4,958 bases of DNA from the IMG/VR virus record IMGVR_UViG_2713896737_000025. One strand, 5' to 3'. This stretch comes from a virus (taxonomy: Duplodnaviria > Heunggongvirae > Uroviricota > Caudoviricetes). Shown in pieces: positions 3,762 to 4,625 of the stretch. Positions within the stretch are counted from its first letter, which is position 1. The number at the start of each line of letters is the position of its first letter. The position numbers and the translations under genes are program-made. Under the pieces are notes generated by a model. The model made no database searches. It saw nothing but the letters and a program-made list of their open reading frames with translations, and was not told the origin of the DNA.

Positions 3762-4044
3762 TTTGAGAAAAGCAGCGCGTAGTCGGGAATGCCAAGTAAG
3801 AATCCCTGGCGTATGTAATGGCAACCCTGAAACGTCTGTACTGGCACATATCCGGCTGACTGGATTGTGCGGCACCGGTACCAAACCGCCAGACTTGATT
3901 GCCACCATTGCATGTTCTGCCTGCCACGACGAAATCGACCGCCGCACACATTTTGTCGATGCTGCATATGCAAAAGAATGCGCGCTGGAAGGTATGGCGA
4001 GAACACAGGTTATCTGGCTGAAAGAGGGGGTTATTAAGGCGTGA
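3754..4044 (+). CDS. ybcO: YbcO, putative nuclease with a Cys-rich metal-binding motif (DUF1364 family)
   Basis: 96-aa product [34 protein letters not shown]...[12 protein letters not shown]... with AAGGAGG 5 nt upstream of ATG 3754. Start overlaps the ninE 3' end by 8 nt. The track ORF 3715-4044 is the same frame with an unsupported upstream extension. Confidence 0.85.
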
Positions 4045-4625
4045 ATACCTACAGCATCACATTACCCTGGCCTCCGAGCAATAATCGCTACTACCGGCAT
4101 AATCGCGGGCGCACGCACATCAGCGCAGAAGGGCAGGCATACCGTGATAACGTCGCCCGAATCATCAAAGGCTCCATGCTGGATATCGGCCTGGCTATGC
4201 CAGTGAAAATCCGTATTGAGTGCCACATGCCGGATCGCCGTCGCCGTGACCTGGATAATCTGCAAAAAGCCGCTTTTGACGCACTCACCAAAGCAGGTTT
4301 CTGGCTGGATGATGCTCAGGTCGTTGATTACCGTGTTGTGAAGATGCCCGTTACCAAAGGTGGGAAGCTGGAGCTGACCATCACCGAACTGAACCGCCCC
4401 GGGTTTCCTGGAGAGTGTTTTATCTGTGAACTCAGGCTGCCAGATCATCGTTTCCGATGGAAGCATAATAAGCTTTTTCTGCTTCTGCCGGAGGAGTATG
4501 GCCCAGCCTTCCCAGCAATCGTCGATTGTTATACCAGTCCACCCACGTTAGTGTGGCCAGTTCCACTTCTGCACGGTTTTTCCAGCTCTTACGGTGTATT
4601 ACCTCCGCTTTGTAAAGACCATTGA
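4041..4625 (+). CDS. rusA: RusA Holliday-junction resolvase, 3' end disrupted by an IS insertion; only about the first 116 codons (4041-4388) are native
   Basis: GTG start overlapping the ybcO stop (GTGA). The first ~116 residues [24 protein letters not shown]...[51 protein letters not shown] match RusA (120 aa in K-12), including the catalytic Asp cluster. From about nt 4389 the frame reads through antisense IS629 end sequence to a stop at 4625, giving a 194-aa chimera. Confidence 0.85.
4390..4430 (-). repeat. Terminal inverted repeat (right end) of the IS629-like element
   Basis: TGAACCGCCCCGGGTTTCCTGGAGAG... on the + strand is the reverse complement of the IS629 right terminus as I remember it (…CTCTCCAGGAAACCCGGGGCGGTTCA). 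IS3-family ends carry TG…CA. Confidence 0.6.

Follow-up and report, generated by a model that had tools for sequence, protein, structure and literature searches.

A read-through rusA chimera at an IS629 terminus in an Escherichia coli O157:H7-type prophage

The window, that is, the whole stretch of 4,958 nucleotides that was analysed (IMG/VR record IMGVR_UViG_2713896737_000025), shows 100% identity over bases 1-4389 to many complete Escherichia coli O157:H7 genomes, in which the matching region is a defective lambdoid prophage adjoining icd. The plus strand of the window carries the end of the phage replication gene P, followed by ren, emrE (recognised by its Multi_Drug_Res match), ybcK (encoding a 508-aa large serine recombinase), ybcN, ninE, ybcO, and a rusA-like open reading frame (ORF). 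The corresponding O157 prophage at locus L004 is arranged in the order int, xis, a 5'-truncated replication gene, P, ren, emrE, ybcK, ybcN, ninE, ybcO, rusA, ylcG, Q, and the lysis genes, and no immunity or early-promoter region was found in it. The gene directly upstream of the rusA-like ORF, ybcO (3754-4044, plus strand), encodes a DUF1364 protein also described as the putative nuclease YbcO; its assignment rests on a Pfam YbcO match of 140 bits and on the annotation that RefSeq gives to the same sequence in O157 (L004:7754-8044). YbcN (3136-3591, 151 aa) gives a weak match to Pfam NinB (E = 1.1e-4, 22.5 bits, just below the cut-off of 23.8), and some YbcN alleles are labelled 'DNA base-flipping protein YbcN' in RefSeq. 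The AT-rich gap between ybcK and ybcN contains a perfect hairpin with a 12-bp stem (2988-3016; GTCACCGGAG...CTCCGGTGAC), which a promoter/terminator scan scored as terminator-like on the minus strand.

The rusA-like ORF (4041-4625, plus strand) consists of 194 codons and a stop codon at 4623-4625, and its start codon, GTG, shares bases with the ybcO stop in the sequence GTGA. It is composed of two parts of different origin. Codons 1-117 (4041-4391) are 100% identical to intact O157:H7 rusA, while the following 77 codons (4392-4622, plus strand, ending in ...PPLCKDH) are IS629 sequence read antisense, crossing its right inverted repeat and the 3' end of its transposase gene orfB. In the same lineage, an intact rusA allele (L004:8041-8403) specifies a protein of 120 residues with the C-terminus ...ITELGNE; the window and this allele are the same through 4391 (ACC GAA CTG) and different beyond, and the IS terminus, TGAACCGCCCCGGG, starts at 4390, leaving bases 4390-4391 (TG) assignable to either rusA or the IS. 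The target reads C-TG-GGG and the IS starts with TG, and codon 117 (CTG, Leu) is kept because the terminal TG of the element equals the TG of the target. In the resulting codon map, E116 occupies 4386-4388, L117 occupies 4389-4391, and the tail extends from N118 (4392) to H194. Three native codons, G118-N119-E120, have thus been exchanged for 77 new ones, and the native 120-aa C-terminus is absent from the chimera.

An earlier note on this DNA, made from its letters alone, had described rusA homology ending at about position 4389 at an IS629-like terminus, a gene cut three codons early, and about 77 extra codons of antisense IS sequence that together make a chimeric 194-aa ORF at 4041-4625. 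This description holds throughout: the ORF list contains the 194 codons and stop, the IS end lies at 4390 with identity to the intact allele through 4391, the codons replaced are exactly three, and those added are exactly 77. The alignment with intact rusA alleles that the note had called for fixes the junction after 4389, with the TG at 4390-4391 shared. The K-12 C-terminus that it had given (...LELTITEMGNE) agrees with the K-12 structure sequences; K-12 RusA ends in ...TEMGNE and so has M at residue 117, where the window has L, and the intact O157 allele already carries L117. The chimeric ORF is therefore confirmed as a real observation, being a discrete structural feature and not a statistical one.

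Positions 4390-4958 (minus strand) correspond to the right-end 569 nt of IS629/IS1203, an element of the IS3 family. All 569 nucleotides (569/569) agree with the right end of the full-length copy (1310 bp) that O157:H7 strain F7386 carries (L005:4677-5986), and likewise with copies in loci L002 and L003, which places the supposed IS629-like element at 100% identity with annotated IS629/IS1203 copies. RefSeq annotates the element as 'IS3-like element IS1203 family transposase', and phage records in GenBank give 'transposase OrfB protein of insertion sequence IS629'. Its right terminal inverted repeat (4390-4414, TGAACCGCCCCGGGTTTCCTGGAGA) was compared with the left end of the full L005 copy (TGAACCGCCCCGGAAATCCTGGAGA). 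The canonical start of the terminal inverted repeat, TGAACCGCCCCGG, is present at 4390, and annotated IS3-family elements of 1310 bp carry TGAACCGCCCCGGG as the terminal inverted repeat at each of their ends; an identical IS terminus was found in seven other loci with independent copies (L001, L002, L003, L005, L006, L007, and L012). Within the element, the 3' part of orfB (4432-4958, minus strand) encodes the DDE/rve integrase core, with Pfam matches to rve (99.1 bits), rve_3, and rve_2; its stop codon lies at 4432-4434, and its antisense overlap with the chimeric ORF spans 4432-4625. The right end of the IS faces rusA, and the transposase genes are convergent on rusA. The window stops 569 nt into the element, with the N-terminal part of orfB and the left end lying beyond it. 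Among the IS elements of E. coli O157:H7, IS629 is the most active. In this serotype, 62% of its copies are located in prophages, many of its sites vary between strains, and its targets show no sequence specificity, with duplications of 3-4 bp (PMC3271280).

Taken together, the locus is best explained by transposition of IS629 into the 3' end of rusA in the icd-side DLP12-like prophage, giving a read-through chimera, a reading to which we assign a probability of about 85%. An IS629 copy would have jumped into rusA after base 4389, so oriented that its right end faces rusA and the transposase genes lie on the other strand; the terminal TG of the element would have rebuilt codon 117, and the rusA frame would have remained open for 77 codons through the inverted repeat and antisense orfB. 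If the insertion was simple, as we infer, the predicted target-site duplication is AAC or GAAC, and the far side should read ...GGGGCGGTTCA + AAC or GAAC + TGGGGAATGAATGA, followed by ylcG. At other copies of the element, duplications measure 3 bp (GGG in L001 and L002) or 4 bp (L005).

A different origin of the same junction has to be considered, in which the join is real and the IS marks a deletion, an inversion, or a recombination between IS629 copies, such that the last rusA codons and ylcG, possibly together with Q and the lysis genes, would be missing or lie elsewhere in the genome. The far flank, which lies beyond the end of the window inside the IS, is where such an event would be visible, and matching duplications of 3-4 bp are present at only 21 of 47 IS629 sites in four O157:H7 genomes (PMC3271280). 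Comparable cases occur in the retrieved loci, as L003 has IS copies without matching flanks beside a truncated nin region, and L010 and L011 have IS3-family elements beside truncated ybcO and ninE that border unrelated genes. However, the IS629-family insertions in the same interval (L001 and L002) are simple, each with its 3-bp duplication, the ybcK insertion in F7386 shows a clean 4-bp duplication, and the window itself contains no sign of rearrangement. Overall, a rearranged origin is possible but rather unlikely.

The rusA type of the window is widespread, being present in 3,579 of 5,426 complete E. coli genomes at 1-3 copies each. The junction was found in none of these 5,426 genomes with queries of 1059 nt and 141 nt, its exact 35-mer was found in none of the GTDB species representatives, JGI metagenomes, or IMG/VR, and it was likewise not found among INPHARED phages. 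An exact look-up of the 194-aa product with an initial M returned no record, and the site is missing from the supplementary text of the 47-site IS629 survey (PMC3271280). The evidence for the junction is one sequence, namely the window, and the insertion is a strain-specific event. Such a strain-specific site fits the known behaviour of IS629, because its sites vary between strains and lie mostly in prophages. Like known IS629/IS1203 polymorphisms of O157:H7, the insertion involves the same element (100% over 569 nt) with a canonical terminus, in a prophage, at a site particular to one strain.

The absence of the junction from all of these collections also speaks for an assembly chimera, in which a repeat collapsed at a contig end was joined to rusA while the rusA of the strain is intact. 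The window does end within a multicopy repeat, and its odd length and near-identical ends lend the idea some further weight: positions 1-10 (ATGAACTGAC) and 4949-4958 (ACGAACTGAC) are alike at 9 of 10 positions, and the window might be a whole short contig. The two decamers are natural sequence of their own contexts, gene P at the start and IS629 orfB at the end, and their likeness is probably a coincidence. Against an assembly origin, the break is exact to the base at the canonical TGAACC... terminus, as at the seven other loci, and IS629 insertion polymorphism is common between O157 strains. Since a break at the canonical IS end recurs in independent copies, a chance join or artefact is disfavoured, and we consider an intact rusA behind a false join to be very improbable. 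Read as an IS629 insertion, the event represents an ordinary strain-specific scar in an O157:H7 prophage and not a new gene type, and its junction, with no occurrence among the complete E. coli genomes (0/5,426), could be used to type the source lineage.

The tail of the chimera is not peculiar to RusA. Exactly the same 77 residues were found in proteins P0118, P0119, and P0120, behind N-termini unlike RusA. The N-terminus of P0120 is flagellin (Pfam Flagellin_N; FliC), its locus (L012) adjoins fliD, fliS, and fliT, and from the IS terminus on, the DNA of that locus does not differ from the window. Since the identical tail stands behind FliC and two further non-RusA N-termini, it is generic to the right end of IS629, that is, a read-through product that any gene hit by IS629 in that frame and orientation would be expected to acquire. 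The 194-aa ORF is an accidental by-product of the insertion and not a selected fusion. In the flagellin case (L012:2501-3019; GCA_001268625.1), fliC is broken by IS629 after codon 95, yielding a 172-aa flagellin-IS chimera, and the isolate is presumably non-motile. The two chimeras share the 77-aa tail, the IS frame, and the orientation of the element to the disrupted gene, but fliC::IS629 loses most of flagellin, whereas the rusA of the window loses only three non-conserved residues. The recurrence of the tail on flagellin and two other public proteins also serves as a caution that long ORFs entering IS ends are annotation artefacts.

The length of the open frame could nevertheless be taken to indicate that the extension forms a C-terminal domain, natural or selected, in some variant of RusA, given that the chance of 77 open codons in random sequence is about (61/64)^77, or roughly 2.5%. 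This reading is refuted by the 100% IS629 identity of the DNA from 4390 onward, by the tail shared with flagellin and the two other non-RusA N-termini, by the absence of any RusA aligned past the RusA part among the best 120 of 848 homologs, by the pLDDT below 50 of the tail, and by the intact same-lineage allele, which ends at residue 120; we attach practically no weight to it. A search of 5.8 billion protein clusters for RusA homologs gave 848 matches, and among the best 120 of these 848, which were inspected, no RusA aligned past the RusA part of the query. Query coverage among these best 120 of 848 was at most about 60% save for P0024 (77%), a longer YbcO-RusA product, and P0120 (71%), the flagellin chimera, which matches through the tail. 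The tail was attached to a RusA in none of the eighteen retrieved proteins. Accordingly, the best 120 of 848 homologs include no RusA with a native C-terminus that matches the window through 4625, the finding that, according to the earlier note, would have spoken against an IS-derived tail. The tail is rich in proline, cysteine, and hydrophobic residues (12 Pro, 4 Cys, 6 Phe, and 11 Leu among 77 residues) and is predicted to be unstructured, as AlphaFold2 assigned pLDDT values below 50 to residues 120-136, 139-144, and 150-194 and gave no confident structure for it.

Upstream of the junction, the chimera retains an essentially complete RusA. The Pfam RusA profile (PF05866) matches residues 9-114 with 75.7 bits against a cut-off of 22.8, covering profile positions 1-123 of 124, and the K-12 RusA structure sequences 1Q8R and 2H8C align over residues 1-118. 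RusA of the K-12 prophage DLP12 (PDB 1Q8R, 2H8C, and 2H8E) aligns with the window without gaps over residues 1-117 (E = 4.5e-75), with five substitutions (V27I, N44G, A45S, R109K, and M117L), all of which are also present in the intact O157 allele. What K-12 RusA lacks is the replacement of its last three residues by 77 IS-encoded ones. The two prophages resemble each other in the order ybcN-ninE-ybcO-rusA and in being defective lambdoid prophages, whereas the O157 prophage adjoins icd and K-12 DLP12 is located at argU. The chimera keeps D70, D72, D91, K76, N73, and R66-R69, and it shares D70, D72, D91, K76, and the arginine loop 66-69 with K-12 RusA. In the K-12 enzyme, D70, D72, and D91 are metal-binding and catalytic, K76 and N73 are further functional residues, positions 66-69 form an arginine-rich DNA-binding loop, and the fold consists of a four-stranded sheet and two helices (PMC1636454). 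With every catalytic and DNA-binding residue present at its expected position, the view that the catalytic core is retained, put forward before this analysis, stands.

Structure prediction is consistent with an undisturbed fold. An AlphaFold2 model of the chimera, built on an alignment of 36 RusA sequences from which the three non-RusA chimeras were left out, gave mean pLDDT values of 71-88 per 10-residue block over residues 1-110, and the strands and helices continue through the last beta-strand (109-116), such that the fold is complete. The three lost residues fall past the end of the Pfam match at residue 114. In homologs, the residues after ...ITEL vary (GNE, GDE, ESA, ETA, EAA, and others), and two homologs stop at position 118. 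In addition, NLS-RusA-GFP, a C-terminal fusion, is active in vivo in fission yeast (PMC2847240). Because the catalytic residues and the fold are kept, the C-terminal residues are variable, and a GFP fusion is active, the chimera, if folded, would probably still act as a Holliday junction resolvase. The composition of the tail and its low pLDDT point to a fair risk of misfolding, aggregation, or proteolysis. The value of the chimera for RusA biology is at most that of a naturally occurring allele with a C-terminal fusion. Public protein sets contain further RusA sequences whose C-termini are foreign (P0019, P0021, P0022, P0023, P0063, and P0075); P0019 and P0021-P0023 diverge right after ...VVKMPV (residue 104), which suggests that residue 104 may be a recurrent break or insertion point in RusA.

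Several other IS insertions were observed in the same part of related prophages. In L001:3466-4775 (strains DAM, ANT, and VTB97584v), an IS629-family element lies in rusA after codon 108, and in L002:3492-4801 (LD22-1 and LD26-1), another lies in the start of ylcG, 43 bp past rusA; both are flanked by GGG duplications and both are inserted at TGGG. Judging from annotation offsets, L008 (23CRST050) has an element at the same ylcG site as L002, at about position 2548. Three distinct IS629-family sites (the window, L001, and L002/L008) thus fall within about 70 bp. Further elements include an IS629-family copy after Q in L009, an IS3-family element within ybcO, with an intact rusA immediately downstream of it, in L010:2044-3506 (GF66.2 and PSS-11), and an IS3-family element in ninE in L011:2043-3432 (14EC001), with the L010 and L011 insertions both bordering deletions of the upstream prophage. 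The IS629 copy in ybcK (L005:4677-5986; window equivalent about 2178) is carried by O157:H7 strains F7386, 147-149, Balcarce_14.2, Z1813, and others, with the duplication GAAT; unlike in F7386 and its fellow strains, ybcK is intact in the window.

At four right-end junctions the sequence reads GAAC/TGAACC (window 4386-4395, L006:1515-1524, L007:1519-1528, and L012 near 2782), although two of the four were selected for their flank match to the query, and the intact target GAACTG is found in both rusA and fliC. Such flanks could hint that the IS prefers targets resembling its own terminus. The recurring GAAC flank, together with an L006 flank that resembles the rusA 3' end at 15 of 19 positions, was set aside as mostly a ranking bias, hits having been sorted by flank extension. 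The IS3-family elements near rusA also seemed to favour one orientation, but this was rejected as evidence, as the search joins only same-strand pieces and thereby selects for orientation. The regional insertions and foreign C-termini may have arisen because a silent prophage tolerates damage, or because the IS favours this region; the regional comparison is biased to the same orientation and similar flanks, and no conclusion was drawn from it. The joint proposal that the chimera is made and differs from the wild type in behaviour, and that IS629-family elements have an insertion hot spot in the interval of about 70 bp between the 3' end of rusA and the start of ylcG, appears highly doubtful. 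If it held, an altered chimera might, for example, be unstable, dominant-negative in mixed dimers with the RusA of another prophage, or mislocalised by its hydrophobic tail.

The location of the insertion had been considered of interest on account of the K-12 rus suppressors. In K-12, rusA is 'normally quiescent', and insertion of IS2 or IS10 upstream switches on its transcription, leading to suppression of ruv mutations (PMC1636454). It is thus correct that IS insertions near rusA alter its expression, and rus-1, rus-2, and the window are alike in that an IS element adjoins rusA in a defective prophage. The parallel ends there. The rus elements activate transcription from a position upstream of the coding sequence, whereas the IS of the window begins at codon 117/118, at the 3' end of the gene, with its transposase convergent on rusA; it does not feed transcription into the gene, and it alters the C-terminus of RusA without giving a promoter. 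The arrangements in L010 and L011 are nearer to the geometry of rus-1 and rus-2 than that of the window. The link between the window insertion and the rus mutations is an association by neighbourhood only, and the event has no bearing on the known route of rusA activation by an upstream IS.

With the IS at the 3' end and its transposase genes convergent, no activation of rusA would be expected. The rusA of the window is probably as silent as that of K-12, because it resides in a prophage without an early promoter and immunity region. Any influence of the element on expression would amount at most to antisense read-through from orfB and the separation of rusA from ylcG and Q, and the net effect of the insertion is most likely neutral. 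In a consensus scan for promoters and terminators over 2600-4958, no site near the junction scored above the background from shuffled sequence, and no outward promoter-like site was found on the minus strand at the IS end. Inside the IS inverted repeat, just past the junction, lies a weak hairpin with a T run behind it (4399-4421, plus strand; CCGGGTTTCCTGG AGAGTGTTTT), which resembles a terminator and could bring sense transcripts to an early end.
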